Part shown: positions 7,612 through 48,132 of the stretch, one piece after another
Layout of the letters: the number at the start of each line of letters is the position of its first letter
Position numbering within the stretch: the first letter of the stretch is position 1
NCBI GenBank assembly: GCA_964354375.1
Contig: CAYGZQ010000003.1
Coordinates: forward strand, 50,040 to 114,039
DNA: 64,000 nt
Source: an uncultured Planctomycetota bacterium
GTDB taxonomy: Bacteria > JAJVIF01 > JAPKYR01
Direction: 5' to 3'
Notes under the pieces: model-generated
What the model was told of the DNA's origin: nothing
The model's input: only the letters and a program-made list of their open reading frames with translations
Database searches by the model: none
Made by a program: the position numbers and the translations under genes

Positions 7612-10284
7612 TCAGTATATGATTACGGCGATCTCGTCAACCCGGGGTCGCGCGTGCGCGTCCGGCGTAGCGCCGCTTCCAAAGCCGATCGCGGCCCTTA
7701 CACGTCCGATACCGTTCGGGTCCAGGTCTGCCAGGCGATACCTCGCCCAGTTGAACGGCCAGCCATATTCATTCCGCCCCCAGCCATATCGATCGTTGTA
7801 CGTGGCGGGGGTCTCGTCGAACCTGACGTTATTGTTGTTGTAGTACTGCGCGGTATAGTACGGGGTACCCTCGATGTAGTCGGCGGGACGGGCCTCACTG
7901 TATTCGTAGTAGTATTGCTGTTTGTTGTGCAGGCTCGGATCGTCGGGGACAGTGCCGACGCTCAGTCGGGCGTAGTTATCCCAGCATTCGTTCATCGGCG
8001 TCACCTGGGCGCCGAAAATCAGCTCTATGTACCATTCCTGCGTCGTTGCGGCTAAGGCCGGATCGGTCAGTATGGGCAGCGGGGGCGATGCGATGACACT
8101 CCAGATGTGCTGCCGCATATAGCCGGAGTCCGGGTCCATCATCCAGCATCCCCCGGATACTGCGCCACCGTATCCGGGTCTCTCGAACTGCCTGTAGAAC
8201 GCCTGCTCATTTCCGCCGTACCCCATGGTCCACGGGAACTTGTCCTGCGAGGCGCCGTCCGGCTCCGCGTTCTCGAGCTCGATGAACGCCCACTCGGTAG
8301 AGCCGACACTCTCGGAGTTCTTGTTACCCGCGACCGACCGGGCTTTCACCATGAAGTAATACGATCCTCCGCTGTTGTATGCGCTCTGCCCGCTCAGCAG
8401 GTTCAGGCATGACCAAACCTCCGGCGGAGTTGTCCCTATCTCTTTCCAGTTTTCCTGGTCGTCGTGAGGATCGCCGTCCCGGTATACGGCCCACTCGGCC
8501 ACAACCCCCGACACCTGGCTTCCGTCCCACCTCACGACTATCGCCGGTATATCGCTAGGGTTATTTATGTACTCGTAAGAATGAAGCGCAGTGCGTTTCA
8601 CCGAAAGCTCCAGATTCAACCCGGACGTGGGGAACTCCGGCGGGTCAGGCAGCTTGACATCCACCATCAGCGAAGCCTCGCTGTATCCGAAGGTGCCGTT
8701 CAGGTCTTTCACTCTGGTATCCACCGCATAGGAGCCCTCATCCGGGAAGCAGATGTCGATAGAGCCGTTCCCGAACGGGTGAATAGCGTCTATGTTTCCC
8801 GTCCCGTCGTTATACTCGGGCGGTGAGTCGTCTCCTATCTCCCAGGCAAAGACAAGGTCTTCGTTCAGGTCCTGGCAGTCGTAGTAGTTCTCGACGTTAT
8901 AGGTATGCACCTCGCCGGCTGTTACCTCGATCGGACCTGTGACAGGCCCCAACTGCGGCGGAGAGTTCGTACCTACATATGGCTCGTACACCTGGTAAAG
9001 GGCCAGGGGCGCATCTTCAGAGCCCTCGAACGATATCGGTAGTTCTTCAGGGCCCACTGTATAGCTTCCGAGGGGGCTGGTTGCCGCCACCAGCACCAGG
9101 GGGTCGTAGGTCTCGAAATTGTCCGGCACCAGCTCGGCGGTGAATGTCGAGATGTGAGCAGAATAGACATCCGAGCCTCCGACCTCCGTGGCGGGCACGA
9201 AATCCACGCCCAGGTCCGGCGATCCGATAAGCACCTGGTCGATCCCACCTGCTCCCTGCCACGTCGAGACATCGATCCTGACCTTCAGCACTCCACCGGA
9301 TACCGGGCAGTCCTCCAACTGCGGGTCGAAATAGAGTGAGTTAGCCTCTTCGTAAATGTCGATGTTAAAGGGCTCGAGGGAGTTGGCCGAGATCGGGAAG
9401 TCATCGAAGGACTGCGGGGGGATGTTGGCGGGTCGTTCCCAGCTTGCATCGACAGCATAATTGAAGACCATGAAGTCCGCGGCGGCAGGACCGAAATTCA
9501 GGGAGTAATGGCGGCGATTGGTGGACGAGCATGAGAAGCGACCCCGTCCAACCAGAACCAGGGGCTCCATGACCTCGTCGTTCGCACCCAGTCCGTCGGC
9601 GAAGTACTTGTAGCCGTTCACCGTGCTCGTGAAATGTGCGGCCTTGTTCGGCTTGCCCAGAAGCCCGTCCTTGTACCCGAGAATCCCGCCGCCGGTGAAT
9701 TCCGTGGGATTCCACCATCGCGTGTAACCGTCCGCGTTCTCGAGCCTGGTCTCGTCCGCTCCGGGCAGGACCAGGTACTCGCCGAGCAGGTAGTTCTCCC
9801 ATGAACCCCTGGAGATGACGATCCCGCGAACGTCGAAGCCGGTGTACTCGGGATGGCCCGGTAGAGGGTGCTGCAGGATTATGTCCAGAGATACTTTGCC
9901 TTCGGGAACATCGACTTCGAGCGTCTTCGGATCATAGGTCAAGTATTTGAGCATGACCGGCTCGAGGAGCGAGACGACATTCAGGTGCGCCGAGCTCTCT
10001 CGAAGGGGCACGATCTCAACCGTCTTCGTTCGGAGGTCCACCTGGAACCGCCACATGCCCCACAGGACGCGGTTTCCGCCCCCGATTTCGCCTTGGGATG
10101 TAAGCCGCATCCGATCGATGCCGGATGATGGATCGGGTACTACCGGGGGTGTTTGTCCGCAGCCCGGAAGCAACAACGCTGCGACCAAGAGGAGCGCTGC
10201 GGTAGCCGGCAGATGATTCGTCTTGGTTCTCATGATTCCTGAGGCCTTCCTGACGGGTTGGGACGCATGGCGACCCTCAAACAA
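7612..10284 (-). CDS. Secreted protein, paralog family member B (conserved N-terminal family domain plus a long C-terminal region)
   Basis: N-terminal hydrophobic signal. Motifs YTGFDVRGIVI, NADGYTRWWNP, NGYKYFADGLGAND, NRRHY, FNYAVDASW match the other three members. Confidence 0.75.
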   Translation of the reverse strand: MFEGRHASQPVRKASGIMRTKTNHLPATAALLLVAALLLPGCGQTPPVVPDPSSGIDRMRLTSQGEIGGGNRVLWGMWRFQVDLRTKTVEIVPLRESSAHLNVVSLLEPVMLKYLTYDPKTLEVDVPEGKVSLDIILQHPLPGHPEYTGFDVRGIVISRGSWENYLLGEYLVLPGADETRLENADGYTRWWNPTEFTGGGILGYKDGLLGKPNKAAHFTSTVNGYKYFADGLGANDEVMEPLVLVGRGRFSCSSTNRRHYSLNFGPAAADFMVFNYAVDASWERPANIPPQSFDDFPISANSLEPFNIDIYEEANSLYFDPQLEDCPVSGGVLKVRIDVSTWQGAGGIDQVLIGSPDLGVDFVPATEVGGSDVYSAHISTFTAELVPDNFETYDPLVLVAATSPLGSYTVGPEELPISFEGSEDAPLALYQVYEPYVGTNSPPQLGPVTGPIEVTAGEVHTYNVENYYDCQDLNEDLVFAWEIGDDSPPEYNDGTGNIDAIHPFGNGSIDICFPDEGSYAVDTRVKDLNGTFGYSEASLMVDVKLPDPPEFPTSGLNLELSVKRTALHSYEYINNPSDIPAIVVRWDGSQVSGVVAEWAVYRDGDPHDDQENWKEIGTTPPEVWSCLNLLSGQSAYNSGGSYYFMVKARSVAGNKNSESVGSTEWAFIELENAEPDGASQDKFPWTMGYGGNEQAFYRQFERPGYGGAVSGGCWMMDPDSGYMRQHIWSVIASPPLPILTDPALAATTQEWYIELIFGAQVTPMNECWDNYARLSVGTVPDDPSLHNKQQYYYEYSEARPADYIEGTPYYTAQYYNNNNVRFDETPATYNDRYGWGRNEYGWPFNWARYRLADLDPNGIGRVRAAIGFGSGATPDAHARPRVDEIAVIIY

Positions 10285-13077: not shown

Positions 13078-16000
13078 ATGTGTTATCTTCCTCGCGCCGG
13101 CGTCTTGGCCTTTATTCTTCTGATTTCCCTGTCGTTTGCCTGTGATGAAAGGGGCTTGCTTTCTCCAGAAGCGCCTTCAGTCAGGTCGGATCGGGGGGCG
13201 GCTGAGGAACCGCCGGAAGTCGATTGCCCCCCTGACCCCTAGGTCCCCGTTGAGCCTGAGCCTCGTCCTCAGCATTGGAGCGGTCCATGGCCGTTGTATC
13301 GATACCGATTCGAACCTGAGATTCCGATAGAGGAGCCATACATCCCGCCGAATCCACCCGAACCGGATCCATATATCGATGGGTCTGCTGCCGTGAGAGA
13401 GACGGTGCCCGGCATCGTGGAGCCTTCTCAGGGACTCGAGCCGGCTCCGATGCCACAGTACATCCCCGCGCCGCTGTCTACGGCGCCCTGTGAAGACCTC
13501 AACCCGGATTGCGATGCTGCCGATCCCAATGGCGACCCTGATGGCGATGGATTGCCGAATCAGGAGGAGCCTGATAACGACAACGACGGAATACCCGATG
13601 AAATGGACCTGGACTGTCTGATGGCGGGCGCTTGCGATAATCCGGGGAGCCCTGAATACGAAGCTTGCCACGATGATCCGGATGATCCTGATGATGATGA
13701 CGATGGAATACCGGATGAATTCGACCCCGACTCGATAGACTCCGATGCCGACGGCATCGTAGACATCTGTGAGGATTACTGCGATCCTGAAGACAAGGCG
13801 GCAGGCTACTGGGACTTACTTCACGAGTGTTTAGGCTCGTGGGAGGGCCAAGACGAATGGACAAATGATGAGGATTGTGATGGCGTCCCCGACCCATACG
13901 AGGATTGGTGGGATAATCGCGACACTGACGGCGACGACATACCCGATGTAAGCGATCCAGACGACGACAACGATGGTAGACCGGACGACGATGACGACGA
14001 TGACGACGGCGATGGCATACTGGATGTGGCGGACCCGGACGGCGACTGTGATAACGACGGGATTCCGAACCTCTACGACTGCGAGTCTCTATGCTACACC
14101 GGGCCTACGTGTTGTTGCCGGGCCGAAGGCGTTCTCCAGCCAAAGATATGGTGGCCGGGCGAGTTCAAAGAAATGAGCGAGTTTGACTACCTGGAGGTGA
14201 TATTCATCAATTTCGGCGTTATAGATCATTGCCCCCCCTGCTACGAGTTAGGGCCCTTCCCCCCGCCAAGATACCGCGTCTTCTTGTTTCTGAACGACGT
14301 TTTGGAGGCCGTATTCAGCACCGACGAGACGGAGACAAGAGTGCTCCCCGTTGCCGTATACCGCCGTGATGCGGCGCGCAATGTGCTTGGCAAATTCGTA
14401 GACGGGCAGAATGATCTTAAGCTAATAATCGAAGACCAGTGCTGCAAGAGAGTATTGGGCATTCAGAAGGATTTCACAGTGAATGCCACGGTCTCTTACA
14501 GAGTCAAGCCATACAGAATGACGTATATTGACCGTGCGGAATTCCCGGCTGGTTATGTGAATAACCCCCTTTATAACATGCAGGGGTTCGCCGGACAGGG
14601 CCAGATACACCAAACGGATCGTTATCAACATGTGTCTTTCAGCCTCCAGGACGAGCTGCCTCACTACTCCGTTTACCTTTCACCCGAATGGTATGAGGGC
14701 TGCGCCCCAAAGGATACCTTCGCGGCTTACAGGATGGGCTCCCAAGTCGGCGTTAAAGTGGATTTCTATAGCCCGGGGACTTACGCAGCCAGCGATCACC
14801 TTTTTCTCCTCCCCTACCAGGTAGCAGGTCTGGGACCACTGCAACTCTACGCAGAAGCCCACATGGTTGTCGTTAACCGACAGAACCCAGGCGTTGTCAA
14901 ACAAGGGACTATGAAGCCTGACAGTTCGTACGGCTATGATGTGGGCCGCCAGCTTCGCCTTATCCGTTGGGATGACGACGACAGAGTGAACGCGGACGAT
15001 ATTCTGAGCGCCCGATGGATTCTTCCCTCTCCGACATTCGATGGCGTGAACGCTTGGTACGACTTCCAGAATGGACAGATCATCGGCAACAAGGTTGAAT
15101 TCACTTACTACGCCGGCGGTGTGTCGTGGGGACCTCCGGCTAATGGCGGAATTATAGAAGAATTCAGGTTCTTCACCTCATACGCCCAGAACTGGACCTC
15201 TAGATCTCATCTCTGGCCGACTGATTTCGCCCTCGAGATGGTCGGACGCTATGCAAGCGGACTGACTAACCCGCAACAGATAATGACTGCAGTTACGGCG
15301 AGAATGCGAGGCCCGAACAACGTCTGGACCAGCGAGGTGAACGATCTGAGTAATGTTACCCTGGACTATGACACAACCCAGCCCGGAAGTTATGACCCGT
15401 ATAGGGCGTTTGATGAGCTTCACGGCCCTCCGGTGGACTACATAATTTATCATTTGGAATGTGACGACTATGCTAACATCCTCACAAGATTCATGCGTGA
15501 CCAGGGCATAGACGCGGAGTCATGGTATGTGTCCGCAGGTCATGACTGCAACCAGCATCCGGGGGGACTGACTAAGAAGGAAAGGGTACGCATGTGGATG
15601 TATGCTCCCGGTGATCCCGGTGATCCCAATCCCCCGGCTTCTCCTCCTCCTTTATACAGACATCCCCCATGGCAGGCCGGATATCTACCGCGGAATGAAC
15701 ATTGGCCAATCGTTTATAACGACTTGCAGTGCTTAGACGGCGCCACGGACACGTGGGGATTTAGGTTCCATCAGGTATGCGAGTACGACGACGACATCTA
15801 TGACCCTGTGCTCTATGATGTGCAGAAGGGGATTGTGCCGTGGGACCAATACAAGCAAGACTACCTGAGTATTTGGGATCGCACGTGGGATATTCCTCCG
15901 CCTCCTTTTCCCCCAGTCCCCGGTGACCCGTGGGTCGACTGCCTCATGTTCAAGCTGCCTTACCCCTGTGCGTACGGGGTCGCTGACGAGGAACACGAAG

Positions 16001-16182
16001 GGCTCAAATCTGTGCTACAGGTAGGTGTTGAGGATCGCGACTATGTGTACAGAATCAAGCACAGCGGGTATCGCTATCCGGATCCTAACCCTGAGTCCAA
16101 TCACCAGTACGTTGTTCCCCATTTCTACATTTGGAACTGGGAGCATCCGATGGATGGGTGGCAACAACGGTTGGACCCATAA
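13078..16182 (+). pseudogene. Lipoprotein with ~20 thrombospondin-type-3-like Ca-binding repeats and a C-terminal domain carrying a transglutaminase-like Cys motif. The reading frame is broken by an in-frame TAG at 13240..13242. Disrupted, or read through.
   Basis: ATG at 13078 encodes MCYLPRAGVLAFILLISLSFAC (lipobox). TAG lies 54 codons in. The same frame continues …PPDP*VPVEPEPRPQ…YRYRFEPEIPIEEP… into ORF 13294..16182, which starts at TTG and has no signal peptide. Repeats of DPDGDGLPNQEEPDNDNDGIPDE type. C-terminal LECDDYANILTRFMRDQGIDAESWYVSAG matches the transglutaminase Cys region. Confidence 0.5.
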
Positions 16183-17164: not shown

Positions 17165-18646
17165 CTACGCAGGCGCTTTCCGGATTGGCACCTTAAGCTC
17201 GCTTACAGCGGGGATTGTGAGGATAAATTCGGCGCCGCCGTCGGGATGGTTCCGCGCGATCAGCTCGCCCCCATGATGTTTCGCAATCGAGTAGCTCACC
17301 GAGAGCCCCAGGCCCGTGCCTTCCCCCGGAGGTTTGGTCGTGAAGAACGGATCGAAAATGCGCTTCAGTGACTCTTCGGGGATTCCCGGTCCCGTGTCCC
17401 TGATTCTGATCTCTATCAAATCCTCCTTGCCCGACGATTTTACGAGCCTCGATGCTATCCGAAGAGAGCCGCCGTTTTCCTTCATCGCCTGCGCCGCGTT
17501 CATGGCGAGGTTATGGATGATCTGCTGTATCTGCTTCGGATCGACCACGACCTGCGGAAGCTCATCGTCAAGGTTCCATTCGACGGTCACCCGCCGAAAG
17601 ATCGGGTGGAACTTGAAAAAGTCCAGCACCTGAATCACCAGCGCATTCAGGTCCGCTTTCTGCGGCTGGATCATCGCGGGGTTCGCGAAATCCAGAAGCC
17701 TTCGTATGATGTCCTTGATTCTGTCGATGTTCGCGAGCACTCTCTGGTACGGCTCCTCGTTGCCGCCCTCGCGTCTGACCCTTTTTGCGAGCATGTCGAT
17801 GACCGTGTAGATTCCGGCGAGGGGATTGTTGATCTCGTGGGCTATGCCCGCAGCCAGGAAGCCGGTGCTCGCGAGCTTGTCGGCCTGAAGAAGCTGCTCC
17901 TCGACCCTCACCATCTCGGTCCTGTTCTCCACGATGACAAGCACGCCTTCGACGCGCTTCTCGGGGCCCATAAGCGGCACGGCTGTGAGGCTCACCGTCA
18001 GGTCCTCCGGACCGCCTCCTCTGAGCGGCTGATTCGCAAGCGAGACCTCCTTCCCGCCGAGCCCGGCTTCGATCGCATCCGTGAGATCAGGGTTCATCGA
18101 TTTCGATATCCTGTCGAACGGCTGATCCACGAGCGTCGCCCGCTTGCCAAGCTGCATCAAGTCGGTGAATGCCCTGTTCACGGCAAGGAACCGACGATCC
18201 GTGTCAAGCGAGAAAATGCCGATCGGAGCGGCCCTGATTATCGAGCTGGCCAGCTCCGCCCGCTTGCGTATCACCTCCTCCAGCTTCTTGCGCTGCGTGA
18301 TATCGTGCGCGATTACCAGCACCCTCTCGATATCCCCGGATTCTCCCGGGATCGGGCTCGCCGACACGTACGCCGGGAACACGTCGCCGTCCGCGCGCAT
18401 AAGCAGAAGCTCGCCGTGCCAGTCCATTTGTTTGAGGGTCTGGTCGAAAAGATCCTCCGCCAGGGAGCGCGAATGCTCCTCGACCCCGCGTAGCAGGTCC
18501 CTTCCGATAATCCGTTTGGGCGGAATCCCCAGGGCCTTGCTTGCCGCAGCGTTGATGTACGTGACACGCCTCTCGGGATCGCACACCATCACCATGTTGT
18601 GCGTCTGCTCGAGATAGCGCGACAGCATTTCGGGGTTGTCGATCAT
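17165..18646 (-). CDS. Cytoplasmic PAS-domain sensor histidine kinase
   Basis: HisKA H-box [10 protein letters not shown]. HATPase_c motifs DTGPGIPEE and [12 protein letters not shown]-like repeats in the N-terminal half. No TM segment. Confidence 0.85.
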
Positions 18647-18740: not shown

Positions 18741-18771
18741 GGCAGGCTGGAAAGCCTGCCCCACAAGATTA
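18741..18771 (-). terminator. Hairpin GGCAGGCTttccAGCCTGCC followed by GTTTTTTCT on the minus strand (copy 2 of the 25-nt element); likely terminator of the 18818..22687 gene
   Basis: Stem-loop plus T-tract 50 nt downstream of the stop codon; identical to the element at 3612..3636. Confidence 0.5.
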
Positions 18772-18817: not shown

Positions 18818-21800
18818 CTACCGTCGCTTTTTCTTCTTCGGTTGCTTCCGAAATGAGAATGGGCGTCTTATCCCGTGAACCACTTTGCTGGCGGATTCCG
18901 CAACCGCGCCGCCGATGCTCGTGGCGCGGGATTTCGCCATCTCGAAATTCGCTTTGGCCTGGGCGTTGTGCGGGTCACAATCCAGCGCTTTCGCGAATTC
19001 GCGCGTCGCCTGAGTGTACAGAGCTTCCCGGAAGTAATAGCTTCCGATCGCGACGTGGGCTTCCGCGGAGTTCGGGGCTGTCGCCACGGCGAGCTCGTAT
19101 TCCTCCCTGGCCTTGTCCTTGTTGCCGCGCTCGTAGAGGATATCGGCCATACGAATGTGACCCTCTGCAAAGCCCGGAAACAGGTCGAGCGATTTCTGGC
19201 AGTGCCTCAGCGCGAGCTCGAGTTGGCCCTTGTCCTTGTATGCCTGCGCAAGCTGGAAATTCAGTGAGAAGTTGTCCGGCTTGATCTCCAGACCCTTCTG
19301 GAACTCGGCGATCGCCTTGTCGTACATCCCCTCTTCCATGTAGGCCGTGCCTTTGGTGACGTAGTGGTGTATCACCGGCGCGGCGGGGAATCTGCCGGGA
19401 AAAATCCGCTGTGTTTCGCCGACATCGCCAAACTGGATCACGACGCACGCCATGCTCTCCTTGATCGACGATCCTGCTCCCTTGTACCTGGAGCCTGCGA
19501 GCGAGATGATCCGCTCGCACGCCTCCTGCGTGTCTATCGTGCTTGTGACGCAGTTGCGGATTTCCACGTCCGACAACACGCGCCCGAGGTCCGATGTCCC
19601 CACGATGAGGACGTCTCCCGCCCTCAAATGTCTTTCGGCGGTCTCGACCTGCACCGTCAGCTCTTTCCCCAGCATGCGCTTCTCGTCGCCGCGTTTCATG
19701 AACGTGCGTATCGTGGCGCTGCGAAGCAGGTAGGCGAAGCAGGCCCCGACCTTGGCGAGGTAAAGGCGATTCTGGCTGATGGACGCGATAAGGAGCTCCG
19801 CGCCGATCGATCCTATCTTGTTGAGCCTGAAGGCCTCCTGGTTGACGATCCCGTTTGCCCTCTGCATCGCCGATATCGCGAGCTGGTTCGGGTCCTCAAG
19901 TATGTCGAGCCGGCTCAGAGACGAGTAGGAGTAGACCTGCTCGGCCTCTCTGAGCGCGAGGTCGGCGCACCTGAGGGCCTCATCGACCTGCGGGCTGATC
20001 CCCGATGCGACTCCGAACGCGCCTCGTATGCCGATGCTGGACGGGGGATAGCGCTGCGCAAACGTCATCCTCGATTCTTCCTCAGGTGGGGCCTCTTCCT
20101 CCGTCGACACCATCGCGAGGTAGCTCGAATTCCCGGGGATAAACGACAGGATCGATTCCTCGATCTCCGCCGCTGCTGCGCTTGCCTGGTAATCGTCCAG
20201 ATCCTCGATCAATTCCCCCCAGCTCGAATAGCGGGCCGTGTAGTCCTTTCTGAGCGCGCGCTCCAGAATCCGTCTCAGGTCGACTGATATCCCGGTGGCT
20301 TCGAGCCTTTCTCGCGGGTCCTCGTACACGTGCATCGCCGATATCTCGTGCGGCTCGCCGTGGAAGAGGTCGTGGCCGGTGATCAGGTAGTAGATCACAA
20401 GCGCCCACGCGTACACGTCCGACGCACCGGTCTGCTCGCCCAGCCCCGTTATCTGCTCCGGGCTGAGATACTCCGCGCGGTTGAGTTTCATGGGCGTGTC
20501 GTAGAAAACGTCTCTCTCGAAGCCCGACAGCTTTACTTTGAGCTGGGGTTTGGACACGACAAACGCGCTCTCCGGCGACAGACGCCCGTACACCTCGAAC
20601 CCTTCCGCCCTCAAATAGATCAGGGCCTCCGCGATCAGTCTTCCGACTTCGACCGCGTACCCCTCGCTCATCGGACCGTACTCGGCGACATAGTCGGCCA
20701 GAGTATGCGTCCTCAGCTCGCTAACGAAGAAATACGCGCCCTTATCGCGGCCGTGGTCGAGGACGCGGATAAGTCCCGGATGCTCGTATTCCGCCGCCAG
20801 CTTCATCCGCCCGTTCCAGGCCTCGTCCAGCTCATGGGTTTTGGGCACTCTGTAGAACCAGAGCATTACCGGGGTATCGGTGCCAAGGTGAGTTCCCGCG
20901 TACAGAACCAGGTCCTTCTCGGGTGACAGCCCGTATGCCCCTCCGATGTTCGTGAGCCGCTCTTCGAGACGGTATTTCCCCTTGATCGTCGTTCCCTGGT
21001 CTATCAGATGAATGTTGATGCCGCTGTCGGCGCTGCCGATAAGATGATCGATATCGTCGGCCAGATCGTCGTAACTCTGGTACCGCTGGAGCGGGTCCTT
21101 CTCCAGCATTTTGATCATGATGTCGTGGAAAACGAGGGGAATCTCATATCTTTCCTGGATTTTCGCCAGTGCTTCCGTCTTGATGTGGGCATCGAAGATG
21201 TCCTGGGGAAGGCCGTCGAAGAGGAAGTCGCCGGTCACTAGCCGGAACAGTATTCCCCCGAGAGCGTAGATGTCGGAGCGCTGGTCCACCGGAACATCGT
21301 CCTCGTCCAGCCACACTTCCGGCGACGCATACTGGTAACCCGTCGGCGGAACCCCGTATGTCTTGCGTATGAACCTCTCGGTCTCGTGCAGACGAAAGTC
21401 TTTGAGGAGCACCTCGTCGCCGCGCGGGTTGATGAGGATATGCTCCGGCCTGAGAGCGCCATGGGCCTCCAGAGATCCCTTGGTCTTGAGATAGGAGAGA
21501 GTGGCCAGCACCTTCCTGATAATCCTGAGAGCCTGTTCCGGCGCCAGCTTTTTTCGATCTTCGAGAACCGCAGCAAGAGAGGAGGTAACGTGCGTCTCCA
21601 CAACGTAGTACTGGTTCTTGTGCCATCCCTGGGCGATGAGATCGACCACGTGAGGGTGTTTCAGCTGCGCCCGCCCGTAGAGGTCCTTGTTGATCGCCCT
21701 GATGAAATCCTCTTCCCGCGACAGCTTATCGTCGTAGAATTTGATCGCGACGAACTTGTCGCGGCCGCGCTCGAGGGCCTTGTAGAGGCCGGAAAACTGG

Positions 21801-22687
21801 CCGCTGCCGAGCTCCTCCAGGACCTCGTAGCGGTTGTCCACGATCTCTCCCGCGAGGCTCCCCTCGGGTCGGGCCTTCTTGAAGCTGACCGCCGCCAGGG
21901 CGTACGCGACCGCCTCCTTGAACTCCGTCAGCGATGCGTAGCGCTTGGACGGATTCTTCTGCAGCGCCGCGATGAGAATCTCCTTTACCGCCATCGGAAT
22001 CTGCTTGTAGTACTCGATGTGCGGGGTGGCGTCGACATACACCTGCTGGTACCGGACCTTGGCGACATCGCTGTCATGGAAAAGCGGGAAACCCGTCAGC
22101 ATGTGATAAAGCACCATCCCGATCGAGTAGATGTCGGCCGCCTGCGTGATCTCTCCAATCCTGTGGATTTGCTCGGGTGATACGTACTTCGGGTCCTCCC
22201 ATCTCTTCCGCGGCTCCTCGTCCATCATCTCCATCGCTCGACCGACATACCAGTCGGCAAGCTTCACGTCGGTCAGCTCGTCATTAACAAGTATATTGTT
22301 CGGTTTGATCGCCAGGTGCGGGGGAAGTCCGATGTTGTATCCCGTTTCCAGCGCCTCGATCACTTTCAGCGTAATCGACAAGGCGCTGGTGAGGTCCACG
22401 GTCTCGTTCTCGATCAAATATTCTTTCAGGCTCATCGGCAGGAACTCGGTCGCAATCTTCATTCGGTCCGAATGCCTGCCGACCTCCCATACCGGCACCA
22501 GGTTGGGATGCTTGATCGTGCGAAGATTGTTCGCGACATTCTCGCATTCGTCGATGAACCCCTCGTGGACTCCGTAGGGTTCCTTGAAGATCTTTACGCA
22601 TGCCACGCGCGGGTCTTTGGGGTCTTTCCCCTTGTATACAAGGGCCGCTTCACTGCCTCGTATGCGGTCTACGGGTTCAAAAGGCAT
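18818..22687 (-). CDS. Multidomain signalling scaffold: three tandem kinase-like domains lacking catalytic residues, a degenerate PP2C-like domain and C-terminal TPR repeats
   Basis: Start is at the internal ATG 22687, which has an AGGAG RBS; the ORF-track extension to 23065 lacks support. Catalytic-loop equivalents are HLAIKPNN, HGALRPEH and YGRLSPES (no Asp). DFG equivalents are ADW, DFR and GFE. PP2C-like segment is LYLAKVGACFAYLLR…GDVLIVGTSDLG. TPR examples AYMEEGMYDKAIAEFQKGLEIKPDN. Confidence 0.8.
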   Translation of the reverse strand: MPFEPVDRIRGSEAALVYKGKDPKDPRVACVKIFKEPYGVHEGFIDECENVANNLRTIKHPNLVPVWEVGRHSDRMKIATEFLPMSLKEYLIENETVDLTSALSITLKVIEALETGYNIGLPPHLAIKPNNILVNDELTDVKLADWYVGRAMEMMDEEPRKRWEDPKYVSPEQIHRIGEITQAADIYSIGMVLYHMLTGFPLFHDSDVAKVRYQQVYVDATPHIEYYKQIPMAVKEILIAALQKNPSKRYASLTEFKEAVAYALAAVSFKKARPEGSLAGEIVDNRYEVLEELGSGQFSGLYKALERGRDKFVAIKFYDDKLSREEDFIRAINKDLYGRAQLKHPHVVDLIAQGWHKNQYYVVETHVTSSLAAVLEDRKKLAPEQALRIIRKVLATLSYLKTKGSLEAHGALRPEHILINPRGDEVLLKDFRLHETERFIRKTYGVPPTGYQYASPEVWLDEDDVPVDQRSDIYALGGILFRLVTGDFLFDGLPQDIFDAHIKTEALAKIQERYEIPLVFHDIMIKMLEKDPLQRYQSYDDLADDIDHLIGSADSGINIHLIDQGTTIKGKYRLEERLTNIGGAYGLSPEKDLVLYAGTHLGTDTPVMLWFYRVPKTHELDEAWNGRMKLAAEYEHPGLIRVLDHGRDKGAYFFVSELRTHTLADYVAEYGPMSEGYAVEVGRLIAEALIYLRAEGFEVYGRLSPESAFVVSKPQLKVKLSGFERDVFYDTPMKLNRAEYLSPEQITGLGEQTGASDVYAWALVIYYLITGHDLFHGEPHEISAMHVYEDPRERLEATGISVDLRRILERALRKDYTARYSSWGELIEDLDDYQASAAAAEIEESILSFIPGNSSYLAMVSTEEEAPPEEESRMTFAQRYPPSSIGIRGAFGVASGISPQVDEALRCADLALREAEQVYSYSSLSRLDILEDPNQLAISAMQRANGIVNQEAFRLNKIGSIGAELLIASISQNRLYLAKVGACFAYLLRSATIRTFMKRGDEKRMLGKELTVQVETAERHLRAGDVLIVGTSDLGRVLSDVEIRNCVTSTIDTQEACERIISLAGSRYKGAGSSIKESMACVVIQFGDVGETQRIFPGRFPAAPVIHHYVTKGTAYMEEGMYDKAIAEFQKGLEIKPDNFSLNFQLAQAYKDKGQLELALRHCQKSLDLFPGFAEGHIRMADILYERGNKDKAREEYELAVATAPNSAEAHVAIGSYYFREALYTQATREFAKALDCDPHNAQAKANFEMAKSRATSIGGAVAESASKVVHGIRRPFSFRKQPKKKKRR

Positions 22688-22837
22688 CAAACACTCCTGC
22701 GGAATGGTGTACCCACATCCGTCCGAATGATTATACCATTCAGACGCTTTTGAGGGCGCAAGTGTTCCCGACATATGGCTGTCGCGTAGCATGCGCGGGG
22801 TGGGGCTGTTGAAAAAACCTGTTTCGATGCCGAATCG

Positions 22838-22991
22838 GGTGGCACCCTCAGGCGGAAAGACTGCGCGAGCAGGCTTTCTGCCTGAGGGTGTTCGATCTAT
22901 TAATCCCTCTATCCATGAGGCATTCAGGTGATTGGTCCGGCACCCCCAGTCCGCCGCGGCGGACGAGGACTCGCCTGAGGGTGCCACGCCT
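22838..22991. promoter_or_regulatory. Divergent regulatory region with three copies of the motif GTGGCACCCTCAGGCG, one direct and two inverted
   Basis: Copies at 22838..22855, 22874..22890 (revcomp, 1 mismatch) and 22973..22991 (revcomp, exact 16-mer). The first two form a 17-bp-stem hairpin. Confidence 0.45.
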
Positions 22992-23045
22992 GATATGCCC
23001 TCCTTGCGCGAAATTGCGCTTTTTCGACAGCCCAGGACGCGCATG

Positions 23046-23075
23046 TTGCGCGTTTCCCGAATCATGTGATATACT
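23046..23075 (+). promoter_or_regulatory. Putative sigma70 promoter (TTGCGC…TGaTATACT, extended -10) for the radical SAM gene pair
   Basis: Extended -10 TGATATACT lies 38 nt upstream of the GTG start, with RBS AGGAGAGG. Confidence 0.4.
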
Positions 23076-23113
23076 CTGGTGGCTGTAAAAAAAATTTCAG
23101 GAGAGGAAAGAAA

Positions 23114-24619
23114 GTGACAGGGAATCCTTCGATCCTCTTTGTCGCGTTAGTACATCGCGAGTACTCACCGTTACGGTCTGCCTATTCCGGCATGGGGAAT
23201 ACCTATGAGCTTCTCCCGCACAAGTACGCGGTGCTTTCGCTTGTGGCGTGGCTGAGGGAGAACGGCTGCGACGGTCGCTATGTCTGGATTGAGAGCAACG
23301 ATCGCGAGGCAATAGCCCATGTTGAAAAGGCGATCGAGAGGTACAAGCCGGACGCGATCGGGATGAGCCTCACCACGGAAGAAGTGATCCCGCACTTCAA
23401 GATCGCCGGGGTTCTTAAGGAGAGGTATCCCGACCTGCCGATAATCGTCGGCGGGCCGCATCCGAGCGCACTTCCGGAGCATACGCTCGAGAACTTCCCT
23501 GCCGTCGATTACGTTGCGATAGGGGAGGGGGAGCGGACGCTCACCGAGTGGCTGTTCGCGATCTCTCTCGGGGGCAGAAGATCCAGGATGCGGGACATTC
23601 CCGGCCTGGCTTTTCGCGACGACGACGGCAGCATTGTCGTTACGTGTCCAAGAGAGAAAATCGAGAACATCAATGTCCTCCCGAATCCCGCCTACGATCT
23701 GATCCTCGATCCCTCGGATCCCTCCGAATCCAGACCCTGCGTGCCAATCGTCTTCTCGTACGGATGCCCCTTTTTCTGTACCTTCTGCTCCGCGGATCAC
23801 GGAAACTATCGCTTCGTCAGGCCCGTGAACGCCGTGAACCGGATTGAATGGGCGCAGAAGAAGTTCGGCGTGACCGATTTCGCCTTCTGCGACAGCTTCT
23901 GGCCGCCCTCGGGGAAGTGGCTCGACGAGTTCTGCAAAGAAATCGAAAAACGCCGGATCAGCATCAGGTTCCACTTCGAGACCCGTACGGGCGTCCTGAC
24001 TCCCAAGCAGTTCGAGAGGCTGAGGGATATCGGGGCGCAGGCGATAGCCGTAGGCGTCGAGTCCGGCGACTCCTTCGTCCTGAGGAGAATCAGGAAAGGG
24101 ATCACCGTCGATCAGGCCAAAAAGACATTCGACGCTCTCAACAGTGTCGGGATTTTCGCGCGCGCGCTTTTCATGTTCGGGAACCAGGGAGAAACCCTCG
24201 AGAGCATCCAGGCTTCAATTGACCTCATGCACAGGCTCAATGCTCCGGTTGTCACCCTCAGCGTTTTCCGTCCGCTGCCCGGCTCCGATGATTTCGGCCT
24301 GATTACCGACCGCGAGAAGGACTGGTGGATGCGCGGCGACGAATCCGGTCGATGGTGGGCGGGCGGAACTTATCCCTCCATCTGCGAGCTTTCCGTGGAA
24401 GACCTCCTGCTCCTGGCAAGGGAAGTGGGCCTGCGTTACCCGCTGCGGGCATCGTATGTCCTCCAGCACATCATCGGCGGAAGTCTTTCTATGAAATACC
24501 GCATGGTTGCCGCGCGAATCTTCCTTGCGCATCTCAGACGCTACCTCCTCGGCATTTCGGAGAGGTACGAGTTTCTGCGCACCCTCATTCGGGGCGCAAA
24601 GACGATGCTGAGAAGCTGA
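23114..24619 (+). CDS. B12-binding-domain radical SAM enzyme (class B radical SAM, methyltransferase-like), paralog 1
   Basis: CxxxCxxC cluster GCPFFCTFC. N-terminal cobalamin-binding-like domain (…DAIGMSLTTEEV…IIVGGPHPS…). Start is GTG 23114 with an RBS, or ATG 23066. Confidence 0.8.
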   Translation: MTGNPSILFVALVHREYSPLRSAYSGMGNTYELLPHKYAVLSLVAWLRENGCDGRYVWIESNDREAIAHVEKAIERYKPDAIGMSLTTEEVIPHFKIAGVLKERYPDLPIIVGGPHPSALPEHTLENFPAVDYVAIGEGERTLTEWLFAISLGGRRSRMRDIPGLAFRDDDGSIVVTCPREKIENINVLPNPAYDLILDPSDPSESRPCVPIVFSYGCPFFCTFCSADHGNYRFVRPVNAVNRIEWAQKKFGVTDFAFCDSFWPPSGKWLDEFCKEIEKRRISIRFHFETRTGVLTPKQFERLRDIGAQAIAVGVESGDSFVLRRIRKGITVDQAKKTFDALNSVGIFARALFMFGNQGETLESIQASIDLMHRLNAPVVTLSVFRPLPGSDDFGLITDREKDWWMRGDESGRWWAGGTYPSICELSVEDLLLLAREVGLRYPLRASYVLQHIIGGSLSMKYRMVAARIFLAHLRRYLLGISERYEFLRTLIRGAKTMLRS

Positions 24620-24728
24620 CCATCCCCGGTTTTCCCACAGCATTCCTGCGAATCCTTCTCTTCGCATGCTCGTCATAAGGCTGCCCAGACCCCTGCGTGT
24701 GCGCCGTGCTATACTCGATACTAACCTG

Positions 24729-26222
24729 ATGGACGAGAAGCCCACGATCCTCTTCATCGCGCTCATCCCTCGCGACTACTCGCCCTACTACGCCAAAACC
24801 TACGGCATGGAGCGGTCGTTCGACCTCATGCCGCACAAGTACGCCATTCTCACATTGGTGTCGTGGCTGAGGGAAAACGGCTGCGAGGGGCACTATGTCT
24901 GGGTCGATGGGCCCGACGAGGAAGGCCTCGGGACGATCGACAAGGCCATCGAGCTCTGCAATCCCGATGCCCTCGGGTTCAGCCTCACCACCGAGGAAAT
25001 GGCTCCCCATTACCGGCTTATCGAGCTTCTGAAGCAGAGGCATCCCGACCTTCCGGTGATCATCGGCGGACCACATGTGACGGCGGAGCCCGTGCATTCT
25101 CTCGATCTCTTTCCGCTTGTCGATTTCGTTGCCGTAGGCGAAGGGGAGCGGACTCTGACGGAACTCCTCCACAGGATCGCAGCGGGTCACGGCGATGATG
25201 AATTAACGTCCACCAGGAGCATCGGTTTCCGCGACAGCTCGGGAAGGATCGTCATCACTGCGCCAAGGGAAAAAATCAACGACATCAACATCCTCCCGGA
25301 CCCGGCGTACGATCTGATAACGGAGTCCGACCAGCCCGCCGATCGGCGCTCGGCCTTCCCCATAATCTGCTCCTACGGCTGCTACTTCTTCTGCTCGTTC
25401 TGTTCGGTCGAGCACGGGAACTACCGGTGCGTCGCGCCCGAGAGGGTCGTGGATCGCATATATCGGGCTCAGAGGCAGTACGGGATCGAGTACTTCGCAA
25501 TACGCGACAGCTTCTGGCCGCCGACGCGTGAATGGCTGGACAGGTTCTGCAGCGAAGTCGAGAAGCGTAAGCTGAAAATCCAGTTTCATTTTCAGACCCG
25601 CGCGGGGACGCTCACAGACGAGCACATGAGCCGATTGAAGAAGATCGGCGCGCAGGCGATCGGAATCGGCGTCGAGGCGGGCGATCCCGCCATTCTGAAA
25701 AGCATCCGCAAGGGCATCACGGTGAACATGGCGCGGAAAACCGTCGCGGCCCTCAATCAGGCGGGGATTTTCTCGATCACGTTTTTCATCTTCGGGAACA
25801 AGGGGGAGAATCCCCGGACCATACAGGCGTCGGTCGATCTCGCTCGCGAGATGAACCCATCGATGTCTCTCTTCCATGTCCTCTCTCCGCTTCCCGGCGC
25901 TGAGGCGTTCAAATCGGTTCCGGACGGTCGGAAGGACTGGTGGTTGAACAGCATTTCCATGCCGCCTTCTATCTGCGACGTTGAGCCCGAGGGACTGGGA
26001 CATCTCGCCAATGAGGCGTTTCTCAGGTACCCGCTAAGATGGTCGTACTTCCGCCAGCATGTCGTCGGGGCCAGACTGTCCCCCGATTTCCGCCGTATCG
26101 CAAGGCGCATCTTCTTTGTGCACGTGAGAAAATACATCCTGGGGATTTCCGAGCGCTACGGTCCGACGAGAAATCTCATACGCTGGGTCAAATCGATGCT
26201 GCGCCGGTCCGGTAGCTGCTAG
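24729..26222 (+). CDS. B12-binding-domain radical SAM enzyme, paralog 2
   Basis: GCYFFCSFC motif; collinear with paralog 1 along its whole length; start MDEKPTILFIAL. Confidence 0.8.
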   Translation: MDEKPTILFIALIPRDYSPYYAKTYGMERSFDLMPHKYAILTLVSWLRENGCEGHYVWVDGPDEEGLGTIDKAIELCNPDALGFSLTTEEMAPHYRLIELLKQRHPDLPVIIGGPHVTAEPVHSLDLFPLVDFVAVGEGERTLTELLHRIAAGHGDDELTSTRSIGFRDSSGRIVITAPREKINDINILPDPAYDLITESDQPADRRSAFPIICSYGCYFFCSFCSVEHGNYRCVAPERVVDRIYRAQRQYGIEYFAIRDSFWPPTREWLDRFCSEVEKRKLKIQFHFQTRAGTLTDEHMSRLKKIGAQAIGIGVEAGDPAILKSIRKGITVNMARKTVAALNQAGIFSITFFIFGNKGENPRTIQASVDLAREMNPSMSLFHVLSPLPGAEAFKSVPDGRKDWWLNSISMPPSICDVEPEGLGHLANEAFLRYPLRWSYFRQHVVGARLSPDFRRIARRIFFVHVRKYILGISERYGPTRNLIRWVKSMLRRSGSC

Positions 26223-28885: not shown

Positions 28886-30124
28886 CTAGATGATTACGAG
28901 TTCCGCCTGGAGTGCGCCGGAGGCTTCGAGAGCCTGGAAGATGGCGACGATGTCCCTCGGCGTCGCGCCCAGGGCATTCAGGGCCGTCACGAGGTCCGCC
29001 GACGTGATGCGCACGAACTGAGCGGGCGTTTCCTGGACCTCCACTCCGGCCCTGGGAATGGCCATGGAGAATCCGCCGCTGTAGGGTGGGGGCTGTCCGG
29101 CCTCGAAGGATTGAGTGACGGTAATCGACAATGCGCCGTGCGCAATCGCCACCGGAATTATCTGCACGCCCGCGCCCATGACTATCGTGCCGGTTCGCTC
29201 GTTGATGACCACCTTGTTCGCAATATCCGGTTGGATCGTAAGGTTCTCGATCTCCGAGATGAACCGCACGGTATCGTTTCTATACTCGTCGGGCACCCTG
29301 ATATTCACGCTTGCCGGGTCCTGGGCTTCCACGAGACGGATCGACGGGAATGCGGTCACGATGGCGTCCCTGAGACGGATCGCAGTGGTGAAATCAGGAT
29401 TCATCAGGACGAGAGTCACAATGTCGTCCTGCACGAAGCTGAAGTCGACCTCTGTTTCCACGTACGCCCCGTTAGGTATTCGGCCCACTGTGAGGAAATT
29501 CGTCTGACGTCGCGCTCCCGCCCCACCTGCCGCTCCGCCGGCGGTGCCGAATCCGGCAAGGCTTACCGGGCCCTGCGCGACCGCATAAATCTCGCCGTTC
29601 GCAGCCCTAAGCGGGGACATGATCAATGTTCCGCCCTGAAGGCTCTGGGCGTCGCCCATCGCCGATACGGTGATATCCACCGTGTCTCCCTCGCGCGCGA
29701 ACGCGGGGAGGTCACAGGTGATCATCACGAGCGCGAAGTTCTTGACCTTGATCCCGGTCGGATCGGTCGGCAATCCGGCGCGCTCGAGCAAGTTGGCGAT
29801 CGCCTGCGCTGTAAAGTCGACGGAAGACGCGTTGTCGCCGGTACCGGCAAGCCCGGTGACAAGGCCGATGCCGTAAAGCTGGTTCCCGCGCACCCCAAGA
29901 ACGCGGGCGATATCCTTCACCCTGACAAGCGGCGCCTCCGAGTAATAGATCGGTTCTGCGAACTCCCATACGTCGGGCGTCTGACCGGTGTCACTGGCGG
30001 CAGCATCCGGCGCAGGCGCGGCAGGAGGCGTTTCCTGTCCGAATGCAGCCAGGGGAGCCGCTCCCAGGATGATTATCAGAGTCAACCTGATGAGAGTGTC
30101 TGCTATCTGTTTGATCGAGCACAT
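28886..30124 (-). CDS. flgI: Flagellar P-ring protein FlgI
   Basis: RVKDIARVLGVRGNQLYGIGLVTGLAGTGD matches the FlgI signature; signal peptide from the internal start MCSIKQIADTLIRL. Confidence 0.85.
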   Translation of the reverse strand: MCSIKQIADTLIRLTLIIILGAAPLAAFGQETPPAAPAPDAAASDTGQTPDVWEFAEPIYYSEAPLVRVKDIARVLGVRGNQLYGIGLVTGLAGTGDNASSVDFTAQAIANLLERAGLPTDPTGIKVKNFALVMITCDLPAFAREGDTVDITVSAMGDAQSLQGGTLIMSPLRAANGEIYAVAQGPVSLAGFGTAGGAAGGAGARRQTNFLTVGRIPNGAYVETEVDFSFVQDDIVTLVLMNPDFTTAIRLRDAIVTAFPSIRLVEAQDPASVNIRVPDEYRNDTVRFISEIENLTIQPDIANKVVINERTGTIVMGAGVQIIPVAIAHGALSITVTQSFEAGQPPPYSGGFSMAIPRAGVEVQETPAQFVRITSADLVTALNALGATPRDIVAIFQALEASGALQAELVII

Positions 30125-30176
30125 TGCGTTGTCGAGTAGAGTCCTCTTTCCTGCTGTCCGTCGAAAGCTTCCGACG

Positions 30177-30800
30177 TCAGAAGAAGAAATTGAATATTCT
30201 GGACAGGATTCCGTCGTGCTGGCGGTCGGCGATGATTCCCTCGCCCTGGTAGAGGACTTCCATGTCGGCGATCTGGCTCGAAAGAATCGTGTTGTCGATC
30301 GTGACATCGTCCGGACGGATCACGCCTCGGATGGTCAGCTCAGCGGAATCCTTGGCAATCGTGATCGAACGCAGACCCTCGATGACGAGATTTCCGTTGG
30401 GAAGGATGTCCACAACCGTCGCGGTGACCTGGGTGGTGAACGTCCCGGCGGTCGACACTCTTCCGTCGCCCTGGAATGTCTCCTTCGGCGTGAAGGTCAG
30501 GTCTTCGATGGGGGCGATGGTCTCGGGCAGGTCGGCTATCCATTGCAGAAAACCCTTGACCGAGATCTGACCGTCGGTATTGAGGCTCTTGTCGGTTTCT
30601 GTCGACGCGCGGTTGGTCGCGGAGGTTGTTTCGGAGATCAGGATCGTGACAAGATCGCCGATCTGGGCCGCCCTGTCGCACGTTATCAGGTCGCAACCGT
30701 CCTCGTCGAAAAGGCTCGTGGCCGACGAGGGCAGGGGGACAAGAAGTCCCAGGACGATTATCATTGAGAAGATTAAATAGCGCATGTTTGCTTTCCTCAT
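30177..30800 (-). CDS. flgH: Flagellar L-ring protein FlgH
   Basis: Size, signal peptide, IGDLVTILISETTSA motif and position between flgA and flgI. Confidence 0.75.
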   Translation of the reverse strand: MRKANMRYLIFSMIIVLGLLVPLPSSATSLFDEDGCDLITCDRAAQIGDLVTILISETTSATNRASTETDKSLNTDGQISVKGFLQWIADLPETIAPIEDLTFTPKETFQGDGRVSTAGTFTTQVTATVVDILPNGNLVIEGLRSITIAKDSAELTIRGVIRPDDVTIDNTILSSQIADMEVLYQGEGIIADRQHDGILSRIFNFFF

Positions 30801-30820
30801 TGAACGAATAATGTGCCCAT

Positions 30821-31564
30821 CTAATCCTGAATATTTATTTCCGCCCTTGATTGTCCTGTGACAACGGCCGTTATGATCGCGTTGGAATCGGGGTTCCTCA
30901 CACGGATTTCCTCGCCGAGACGTCCCGAGTCGAGCGCGATGCCGTGCAGCGTGACCGTTGCGGCACCGATCGGAACGACGACGGTCACCGCATCGCCCCG
31001 AACCACCAGGATCGGCAGTTCCACCATGGCGCTTGTCAGCACCCGGCCCGCGGGGATGTCAGTGCGAGCCGCGAGGCCTGCGATCTCCTCGAAGCTCCGA
31101 TAGACGTCACCTGACGGAAGCTCCTTCACGTTGACGATCGTTTCCTCGACATCGTCTTCCGTCAGGACCTGCCCGCGCTCGATTTCTCTCGCGGCGGCAA
31201 CCGCGGGGACCGTGACTTTCAGATACGGGCCTGGATCGAAGCGAAGATACAGCGTGCCGTCGACGCGAACTTCCACCGAGACAGCGCCGATGTCCTTGAT
31301 GCCGTTGGGAGTGCGCTCGAGGACCGCCTGCACCTCGATCAGTCCGTCGCTGTAGACCGTTATGTCGCTGGGAGTCTGGTCGATCTCGACCGTGCAACCT
31401 GCAGAGGCCCATGGATCGCTTGTGAGCACCAGGTTCCGGGCGGCCTCCAGAAGCCAGCCCGAGTTAAGGGTCCGGGAACCGGACGCGTTCACCCGGCTGA
31501 GTCCCGTCAGCGCGCAGATCGTAACAAGTGCCGCCATGAATCTTATGAAAGGCTGACTGGTCAT
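30821..31564 (-). CDS. flgA: Flagellar basal-body P-ring formation protein FlgA
   Basis: Signal peptide, C-terminal SAF-like region (RVLTSAMVELPILVVRGD…IRVRNPDSNAII) and conserved gene order. Confidence 0.7.
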   Translation of the reverse strand: MTSQPFIRFMAALVTICALTGLSRVNASGSRTLNSGWLLEAARNLVLTSDPWASAGCTVEIDQTPSDITVYSDGLIEVQAVLERTPNGIKDIGAVSVEVRVDGTLYLRFDPGPYLKVTVPAVAAAREIERGQVLTEDDVEETIVNVKELPSGDVYRSFEEIAGLAARTDIPAGRVLTSAMVELPILVVRGDAVTVVVPIGAATVTLHGIALDSGRLGEEIRVRNPDSNAIITAVVTGQSRAEINIQD

Positions 31565-31830
31565 CTTGAATCATGCAAACTCTCCGGCGGTCCGCCGGAG
31601 CAGTGCTGGAAATATCAAAGGGGAGGGGAGAAGAGTTCCTTTAATTGTTTCTGTGGTGACGTGGGCGCCGCGCCTCCGGAACAGCCCGCTTCGCAACCCT
31701 CTCTTGCGAAGAAGCCGGATAATTTTTGCCCCTTGCGGCCGGGCCTCATCGCCCTTTATGGACTCTTCCCCCTCCCTGTGAAAGTCACTCGTCGTCTCTT
31801 GCTTTCGTCTTCACCTCCCCACGGTGAGAA

Positions 31831-32619: not shown

Positions 32620-32664
32620 GCTTAACTGCCCTCGCTTAGTGCCGCAACCGCATCCATCCGCGTC

Positions 32665-32763
32665 CTAGTACGGGACGAACGCGGTTGCCAGGTAGAGAAC
32701 CAGCAGAACGACCCACAGACATAGGTCCCCAAGGTCGTCCCGCATTCGTCGGAGCATCAACAT
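32665..32763 (-). CDS. Putative 32-aa hydrophobic peptide (MLMLRRMRDDLGDLCLWVVLLVLYLATAFVPY) between flgF and flgG
   Basis: ATG preceded by GGAGGAA. It is below the ORF-track size cut-off and lies in the only intergenic gap of the rod/ring operon. Confidence 0.35.
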   Translation of the reverse strand: MLMLRRMRDDLGDLCLWVVLLVLYLATAFVPY

Positions 32764-32854
32764 CGGGTTCCTCCTGTATCTGTTCTGTTCTCGCTAATCC
32801 TCATTCTCCCCCCAACCCGGTCGACTGATGTTGATTATTGATTTACAGATCCAC

Positions 32855-33646: not shown

Positions 33647-33779
33647 AGGAGAACACCGGACCTGGGGGCGATTCTTCTCGCCCATTCTGTTTATCGGAAA
33701 GAGAGTGGGGGGCTGAACGAGGAACGGGATGCAAGAGGCGGGAAAAGTGGACCCGAATGGCCTCCGGCTTCCGATGAAA

Positions 33780-48124: not shown

Positions 48125-48132
48125 CGCCGAAA

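Follow-up and report, generated by a model that had tools for sequence, protein, structure and literature searches.

A 64,000-nucleotide stretch of an uncultured Planctomycetota genome (contig CAYGZQ010000003.1; here called the window, with positions counted from its first nucleotide) carries on its minus strand a gene for a 1289-residue protein built of three kinase-like domains (D1, D2 and D3), a PP2C-fold domain, four tetratricopeptide repeats (TPR) and a conserved polybasic tail, in this order. As predicted from its sequence, no domain of this protein has a complete canonical catalytic centre. By analogy with known pseudoenzymes, and with moderate confidence, we favour the reading that it acts in Ser/Thr phosphosignalling, as a signalling scaffold without catalysis or as an allosteric hub. 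The initial annotation had described it as a dead scaffold made of three pseudokinases, a pseudophosphatase and TPR; this composition held up, but "dead" proved too strong, as D1 and D2 keep nucleotide- and metal-binding residues.

The Pfam Pkinase profile (PF00069) matched the protein in three stretches (E = 5e-70; 236 bits against a cut-off of 31.7), in line with the three Ser/Thr-kinase-like domains originally recognized. Each domain taken alone also matched bacterial Hanks kinases in the PDB with E values between 1e-17 and 5e-23 (Staphylococcus aureus PknB 4eqm, StkP 9ruj, PknE 2h34 and Mycobacterium tuberculosis PknB), and an AlphaFold2 model gave the bilobal kinase fold for all three, D3 included. 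The three domains share only 23 to 28% identity with one another, and the triplication or fusion is therefore old. An SPE motif, which the initial annotation had pointed out in each domain, is present in all three and is ordinary for bacterial Hanks kinases, since PknB and StkP also have SPE.

Residues were mapped by phmmer alignments to the PDB kinases, then by hhalign profile-profile comparison among D1, D2 and D3, and then by the motif columns of 28 full-length orthologs, on which the conservation and motif counts given here rest. A pseudokinase was defined by sequence as a kinase-fold domain that lacks at least one of the VAIK Lys, the HRD Asp and the DFG Asp. By this definition D1, D2 and D3 are all pseudokinases: D1 and D2 lack the HRD Asp, and D3 lacks all three residues. 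Loss of the HRD Asp from every domain had been proposed before, and profile alignment bore this out, placing A126, A411 and R701 at that position. Early phmmer alignments had put V31 and V607 at the beta3 Lys position; this assignment was superseded by hhalign, which gives K32 and W610.

In D1, the Gly loop is degenerate (R-G-S-E-A-A). The beta3 (VAIK) Lys is K32, which is invariant and is paired by hhalign with K316 of D2, and the alphaC Glu position is held by V51, with a conserved acid two residues earlier. The HRD motif reads H124-L-A126, without the catalytic Asp, and the catalytic-loop Lys and Asn are kept as K128 and N131. The DFG motif is D145-W-Y; its Asp is invariant in 28 of 28 orthologs and is paired by hhalign with D430 of D2. 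The DFG Asp had initially been reported missing from two domains (ADW and GFE), which was incorrect for D1: the D of ADW is D145, the DFG Asp itself, which falls at that position in all of the alignments, and only D3 lacks it.

The Gly loop of D2 is intact (G294-S-G296-Q-F298-S), and both the beta3 Lys (K316) and the alphaC acid (D335) are invariant. The catalytic Asp is again lost from the HRD motif (H409-G-A411), and the catalytic-loop Lys and Asn positions are occupied by R413 and H416; the His, which takes the place of the metal-binding Asn, is almost invariant. The DFG motif reads D430-F-R432, with the Asp kept in 27 of 28 orthologs and the Arg of this "DFR" nearly invariant. The nucleotide-binding residues G294, G296, F298, K316, D335 and D430 are thus all invariant or nearly so, and D2 looks able to bind nucleotide. 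D3 is degenerate throughout. Its VAIK motif has become V-M-L-W610, in which the Lys is replaced by a Trp that is invariant; HRD (Y699-G-R701) and DFG (L720-S-G722) have both lost their Asp, S703 and S706 stand at the catalytic-loop Lys and Asn positions, and the Gly loop is not canonical.

With a single sequence, the domain that follows D3 scored below the Pfam threshold for PP2C (13.5 to 18.1 bits against a cut-off of 20.3), and single-sequence and profile searches of PDB sequences gave only sub-threshold matches (E = 0.1 to 1.3). We call it a PP2C homolog because of an exhaustive profile search, hhalign and a fold search. The profile of this domain found 509 matches at E ≤ 1e-3 among 1.84 billion representative proteins, and 9 of 10 proteins sampled from these carried Pfam PP2C, PP2C_2 or SpoIIE. 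When a 23-sequence family alignment was compared by hhalign with a profile of 46 true PP2Cs, the probability of homology was 99.9% (E = 2e-36). The AlphaFold2 model of the domain (predicted local distance difference test score [pLDDT], 81; predicted template modelling score [pTM], 0.82) retrieved PPM phosphatases as all of its top Foldseek matches in the PDB (PppA 6jkv, tPphA, PstP 1txo and 2cm1, Stp1, SpoIIE and TAB1), with a best E value of 8.5e-14 and target-normalised template modelling scores of up to 0.77. The PP2C alignment first suggested for this domain was therefore weak by single sequence and decisive at the profile and fold level.

The active site of this domain has been dismantled, and the replacement of the metal-binding Asp residues, also part of the initial annotation, was recovered in MAFFT and hhalign alignments. 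The phosphate-binding Arg is replaced by M859 and the NED Asp by S872. DGxGG reads ASGIS, with S895 in place of the Asp and the next Gly (G896) kept and invariant; GDSR reads GACF (A982 for Asp), SDGL reads TSDL (S1032 for Asp) and DN reads ES (E1077 for Asp). The flap is deleted, leaving a gap of 20 to 24 residues relative to true PP2Cs between IRTFMK and RGDEKRMLG, and the Asp residues of DGxGG and GDSR are absent from 28 of 28 orthologs. Judged from its sequence and predicted fold, the fourth domain is a PP2C-fold pseudophosphatase. Among the 1.84 billion representatives, no such pseudo-PP2C domain was found outside its own family, and the next matches were ordinary PP2Cs at E values of about 1e-12.

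At least four TPR units had been proposed at the C terminus, and Pfam models found four repeats above their cut-offs (TPR_2, 65 bits against 27, in 4 stretches); residues 1111 to 1254 aligned with consensus TPR proteins at E values down to 6e-74. The tail beyond them reads ...SIGGAVAE.ASKV.HGIRRPF... and ends in the Lys/Arg run KKKKRR. Nearly all orthologs (one entry is truncated) share the pattern ...S-I-x-G...E...G-I-[RK]-x-P-F followed by a Lys/Arg run, with G1260, E1264 and P1276 invariant. Such a tail might direct the protein to a membrane or to nucleic acid, or act as a docking motif.

The AlphaFold2 model of residues 1 to 1105 folded each domain confidently (mean pLDDT, 82), with an overall pTM of 0.53 and low-confidence linkers at residues 267 to 276, 554 to 560, 839 to 844 and 858 to 869. 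This result fits modules on flexible linkers, and a defined inter-domain assembly cannot be claimed; a fixed assembly was sought in the model and was unsupported, given the pTM and the disordered linkers. No transmembrane segment was found in the 1289 residues (the highest 19-residue Kyte-Doolittle mean was 1.27), and the protein is predicted to be soluble and cytoplasmic.

The extent of the gene, originally placed at 18818 to 22687, was correct: it is a single minus-strand open reading frame (ORF) that ends at 18818, is supported by its orthologs and starts with the ATG at 22687, which a GGAG precedes by a few bases. Orthologs, which are 1261 to 1293 residues long, carry an M-[PAT]-[FY]-[EA]-P motif at or a few residues from residue 1. 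A start at 23065, giving 1415 residues, was rejected because this N-terminal motif matches the start at 22687, where the GGAG also lies. The reading frame nevertheless stays open for 126 codons upstream of the ATG (22688 to 23065, minus strand), into the divergent intergenic region, and a gene caller could over-extend the coding sequence through it.

A full-length search, which returned about 30 sequences, yielded at least 28 full-length orthologs at 44 to 97% identity that agree with the window protein in length and Pfam pattern. All of them come from metagenomes or metagenome-assembled genomes; the species-representative genomes with the gene are titled "Planctomycetota bacterium" or "bacterium", and NCBI names the proteins "protein kinase" or "hypothetical protein" (MCX6646785.1, HEX9745452.1, HYE78098.1 and HDS29589.1). 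Invariant columns account for 19% of D1, 14% of D2, 13% of D3 and 24% of the PP2C-like domain, the highest value. On the evidence of these sequences, all domains are under purifying selection across this range of identity.

The orthologs differ at the catalytic position of D1. In the clade of the window protein (n = 16; ≥71% identity), the position holds Ala or Gly in 16 of 16 sequences. Distant orthologs (P0025 to P0036; 44 to 53% identity) have H-[LM]-D-[IL]-[KR]-x-x-N in 11 of 12 cases and Asn for the Asp in the remaining one, and the same 11 also have the equivalents of K32 and D145. By the usual triad definition, these 11 proteins have a canonical kinase as their D1, albeit one with a glycine-free Gly loop. 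Three distant orthologs have H-Q-[ED]-L-[KQ]-P-x-N in D2. Since the D1 Asp survives in 11 of these 12 distant sequences, the ancestral protein probably combined one possibly active kinase with two pseudokinases and a pseudo-PP2C; the fully dead state would be specific to the clade of the window protein, and the distribution points to a single loss of the D1 Asp at the base of that clade. The fully dead state of the initial annotation is thus true of this clade and not of 11 of the 12 distant orthologs. The record name "protein kinase" (e.g., MCX6646785.1 and HYE78098.1) is probably wrong for this clade. Retention of the D1 triad in some clades and its loss in another provide a natural comparison that could show how a signalling enzyme changes into a scaffold.

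According to the mechanism that we propose, the protein would carry out neither canonical phosphotransfer nor dephosphorylation. D2 would probably bind nucleotide as a conformational switch, like pseudokinases of the HER3, STRAD or JAK-JH2 type, because the Gly loop, K316, D335, H416 and D430 are kept and the catalytic base is absent. D1 would be a recently inactivated kinase in which K32, N131 and D145 remain. D3 is probably a purely protein-binding module, with the invariant Trp at the Lys position plausibly occluding the pocket. The dead PP2C would most likely serve for docking a kinase or some other partner, in the way that TAB1 engages TAK1 and p38, and we counted the presence of TAB1 among its sequence and fold matches in favour of the scaffold reading; because the phosphate-binding Arg is lost together with the metal ligands, a role as phosphate reader is unlikely and TAB1-style docking would suit it better. 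The TPR module would recruit partners or mediate oligomerization, and the partners (active Hanks kinases, PP2Cs or substrates) would be encoded elsewhere in the genome; the absence of a conserved operon partner fits a stand-alone hub. A bolder version, which we put forward only tentatively, is that of an ATP-sensing hub in which nucleotide on D2 controls the capture of an active Hanks kinase or phosphatase by the pseudo-PP2C and TPR. The protein would then be the first bacterial self-contained dead kinase/dead phosphatase module, and its family would record a stepwise change from active tandem kinase to non-catalytic regulator, the D1 triad being intact in the distant clades and lost in this one.

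Several points weigh against a non-catalytic scaffold. Missing canonical residues do not prove missing catalysis, and SelO, SidJ, WNK, CASK and HER3 are precedents for catalysis despite degenerate residues. With the full K/D/D triad in D1 of 11 of 12 distant orthologs, the family may use real phosphotransfer, and this clade may rely on a kinase acting in trans. The pTM of 0.53 lends no support to a defined inter-domain assembly, and the alignment holds only 28 sequences. Because D2 (K316, D335 and D430) and in part D1 (K32, N131 and D145) keep their binding residues, ATP binding and weak or non-canonical chemistry may still occur. We nonetheless regard as unlikely a non-canonical enzyme in which D2 (or D1) still turns over ATP and the other domains act as regulators or substrate docks, be it through weak base-free phosphotransfer, as in HER3, or through AMPylation or glutamylation, as in SelO and SidJ. 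Such an enzyme would account for the D2 Gly loop, K316, D335 and D430, for the nearly invariant His at the Asn position and the Arg in "DFR", for the retention of K32, K128, N131 and D145 in D1, and for the ortholog motifs (H-Q-[ED]-L-[KQ]-P-x-N in D2 of three, H-[LM]-D in D1 of 11). However, no alternative conserved acid was found near the D1 or D2 catalytic loop in the clade of the window protein, the Gly loop of D1 contains no more than one glycine, and the alphaC Glu position of D1 is hydrophobic.

The neighbourhood raises another explanation, in which the protein is dedicated to regulating the PAS histidine kinase encoded next to it and connects a Ser/Thr module with a two-component pathway, perhaps with the radical SAM genes involved as well. 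The order radical SAM/pseudoenzyme gene/PAS kinase recurs, where the contig is long enough, in L001, L002, L005, L009, L010 and L011 (72 to 80% identity), with the PAS kinase itself seen in L001, L002, L009 and L010, and no response regulator gene was found among the flanking ORFs scanned, which we also counted for this view. Synteny at such relatedness is, however, predicted by descent alone, and neither the PAS kinase nor the radical SAM genes occur at L006 (75% identity) or at any of the 5 distant-clade loci examined (L003, L004, L012, L013 and L014). The genes that flank the distant-clade orthologs are unrelated ones, encoding HU with an XRE-type regulator, seryl-tRNA synthetase, an RND efflux pump and a sigma factor. 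Between the two genes, both here and in L001, lies a strong terminator-like hairpin, and we consider dedicated regulation of the PAS kinase distinctly improbable. Less probable still is an anti-phage or immune sensor whose degenerate domains serve as decoys for phage effectors, like plant tandem kinase-pseudokinase resistance proteins, whose tandem layout the protein resembles (see also PMC7210774). The PADLOC kinase models PD-T4-6, Mad6 and MkoA matched all three kinase-like domains, and NCBIfam MADS6 and PglW matched weakly, but the scores were far under the family cut-offs (MADS6, 212 against 460 bits; PglW, 59 against 990). A defence role based on these models was rejected, as the matches cover the kinase domains only and reflect generic kinase similarity. 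In addition, neighbours are housekeeping, flagellar or regulatory genes, defence partner genes are absent from the neighbourhoods examined, and the gene seems to be vertically inherited within one lineage. Finally, the loss of catalytic residues in four domains could be taken for the decay of a functionless relic. The conservation pattern effectively refutes this: 28 intact orthologs of about 1260 to 1290 residues keep the architecture and motifs down to 44% identity, with conservation highest in the dead PP2C domain.

Among known systems, TAB1 (2irm and 2pop were among the matches) likewise combines a PP2C fold with an incomplete set of metal-binding residues, and it binds and activates the kinases TAK1 and p38. 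It differs in being eukaryotic and a separate polypeptide from its kinases, whereas the window protein carries its dead PP2C, which has lost the flap, in one chain with three kinase-like domains and TPR. PHLPP1/2 also place a repeat module (leucine-rich repeats; TPR here) beside a PP2C domain whose centre has diverged and is inactive (PMC12002173, PMC13358185), but they are metazoan proteins with PH and leucine-rich repeat modules and without kinase-like domains, and their active site has diverged without losing every Asp. JAK (JH2-JH1) and plant tandem kinases (WTK1/Yr15) have several kinase folds per chain, the degenerate ones serving as regulators or decoys (see also PMC7210774), and the distant orthologs, with a K/D/D triad in D1 and degenerate D2 and D3, fit this tandem kinase-pseudokinase layout. 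The JAK and plant proteins have two such domains, in contrast to the bacterial window protein with three domains, a dead PP2C and TPR, in whose clade the catalytic Asp is found nowhere.

Bacterial kinase-TPR proteins (PknG, Myxo1, Strep1/2 and GN-NS1) have a Hanks domain followed by TPR, which a kinase atlas reads as an interaction or dimerization module (bioRxiv 10.1101/2025.01.12.632604), but theirs is a single, mostly active kinase domain without a PP2C-like domain. The atlas and a 2025 review list seven bacterial pseudokinase families, ActPs1-3, GLW, CP1, DYD and DLHK, which share with the window protein Hanks-derived domains and degraded catalytic motifs (PMC12599244). Their partner domains differ (COG3899, helicases and membrane anchors), and, judged by the published descriptions only, the kept VAIK Lys of D1 and D2 and the architecture of the window protein do not seem to fit these families. 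Tandem kinase domains or PP2C fusions are not mentioned in the atlas or the review; other surveys may list a similar architecture. Four proteins at about 25% identity to the window protein (P0038, P0040 [with FHA], P0041 and P0045) also have three Pkinase stretches per chain, usually with one or two domains in which HRD/DFG is intact. They differ in lacking PP2C-like and TPR domains, in their Pfam scores (430 to 470 bits against 236) and in having at least one canonical HRD...DFG. On this comparison, the tandem kinase-pseudokinase layout is not unique to the family of the window protein, and it is the addition of a dead PP2C and TPR that sets the family apart. The four proteins are metagenomic and 947 to 1790 residues long, and may represent a broader class of prokaryotic tandem kinase-pseudokinase proteins that has yet to be described. 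Bacterial pseudokinases have barely been studied, and the catalogued families are described with single kinase-fold domains. To these, the present family, though small and confined to an uncultured lineage, adds a conserved architecture of three kinase folds, a PP2C-fold pseudophosphatase and TPR.

The neighbours reported initially, an adjoining PAS histidine kinase and a divergent pair of radical SAM genes, were both confirmed by Pfam; across the family, this context reflects local synteny only. The hairpin downstream of the pseudoenzyme gene has a comparable counterpart at the same place in L001 (13895 to 13916; a 72%-identical locus) and was not found in L010; it suggests that the gene and the PAS kinase are separate transcription units. 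No operon partner conserved across clades was found among the ortholog loci examined. It seems best to regard the gene as a unit of its own, with a neighbourhood that says little about its function. The features of the window are collected in the table.

Table. Positions of the pseudoenzyme gene, its domains and other features in the window (aa, residues of the 1289-residue protein)
Feature	Window positions	Strand	Evidence or remarks
Multi-domain pseudoenzyme coding sequence	18818-22687	minus	1289 codons + stop; ORF/translation, orthologs, GGAG upstream of ATG
Kinase-like D1 (aa 1-266)	21890-22687	minus	phmmer vs 4eqm and 9ruj, hhalign D1/D2, ortholog motifs, AlphaFold2 pLDDT ~85-92
Kinase-like D2 (aa 277-553)	21029-21859	minus	PDB alignments, hhalign, ortholog motifs, AlphaFold2
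Kinase-like D3 (aa 561-838)	20174-21007	minus	PDB alignments, ortholog motifs, hhalign; complete kinase fold in AlphaFold2
PP2C/PPM-fold domain, predicted pseudophosphatase (aa 846-1088)	19424-20152	minus	Profile search, hhalign, AlphaFold2, Foldseek, MAFFT
Four tetratricopeptide repeats (aa 1108-1250)	18938-19366	minus	Pfam TPR_1, TPR_2 and TPR_8 above cut-offs
Conserved C-terminal tail (aa 1251-1289)	18821-18937	minus	Ortholog alignment
Terminator-like hairpin	18741-18760	minus	8-bp stem, 6 G-C pairs, then GTTTTTT; 58 nt past stop, before PAS kinase
PAS-HisKA-HATPase_c histidine kinase	17165-18646	minus	Pfam; downstream neighbour, linked by synteny in the close clade only
B12-binding radical SAM gene	23066-24619	plus	Upstream, divergent
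B12-binding radical SAM gene	24666-26222	plus	Upstream, divergent
Flagellar basal-body cluster	28886-33913	minus	FlgI, FlgA, FlgG-like and FlgF-like rod proteins
Secretin gene	35360-38002		
IspF-RNase H fusion	42574-43575	plus	One ORF
Large ORF	1143-3524		No Pfam match
Large ORF	7612-10284		No Pfam match
Large ORF	13294-16182		No Pfam match
Large ORF	44102-46387		No Pfam match
Large ORF	46478-48145		No Pfam match
Large ORF	53988-56369		No Pfam match
Large ORF	57082-59790		No Pfam match

The two radical SAM genes are tandem paralogs, present as a single copy in L001, L005 and L010, which suggests a local duplication. Elsewhere the window consists of ordinary chromosome; it includes genes for the flagellar basal body, a secretin, TGT and a pseudouridine synthase, together with many large ORFs that have no Pfam match. 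Flagellar genes also lie near the ortholog in L001. Seven of the large ORFs (555 to 962 amino acids; no Pfam match at E ≤ 1e-5) make lineage-specific proteins dense in the window. An unusual fusion in one ORF joins IspF (YgbB, MEcPP synthase; E = 1e-62) to a C-terminal RNase H/RVT_3 domain.

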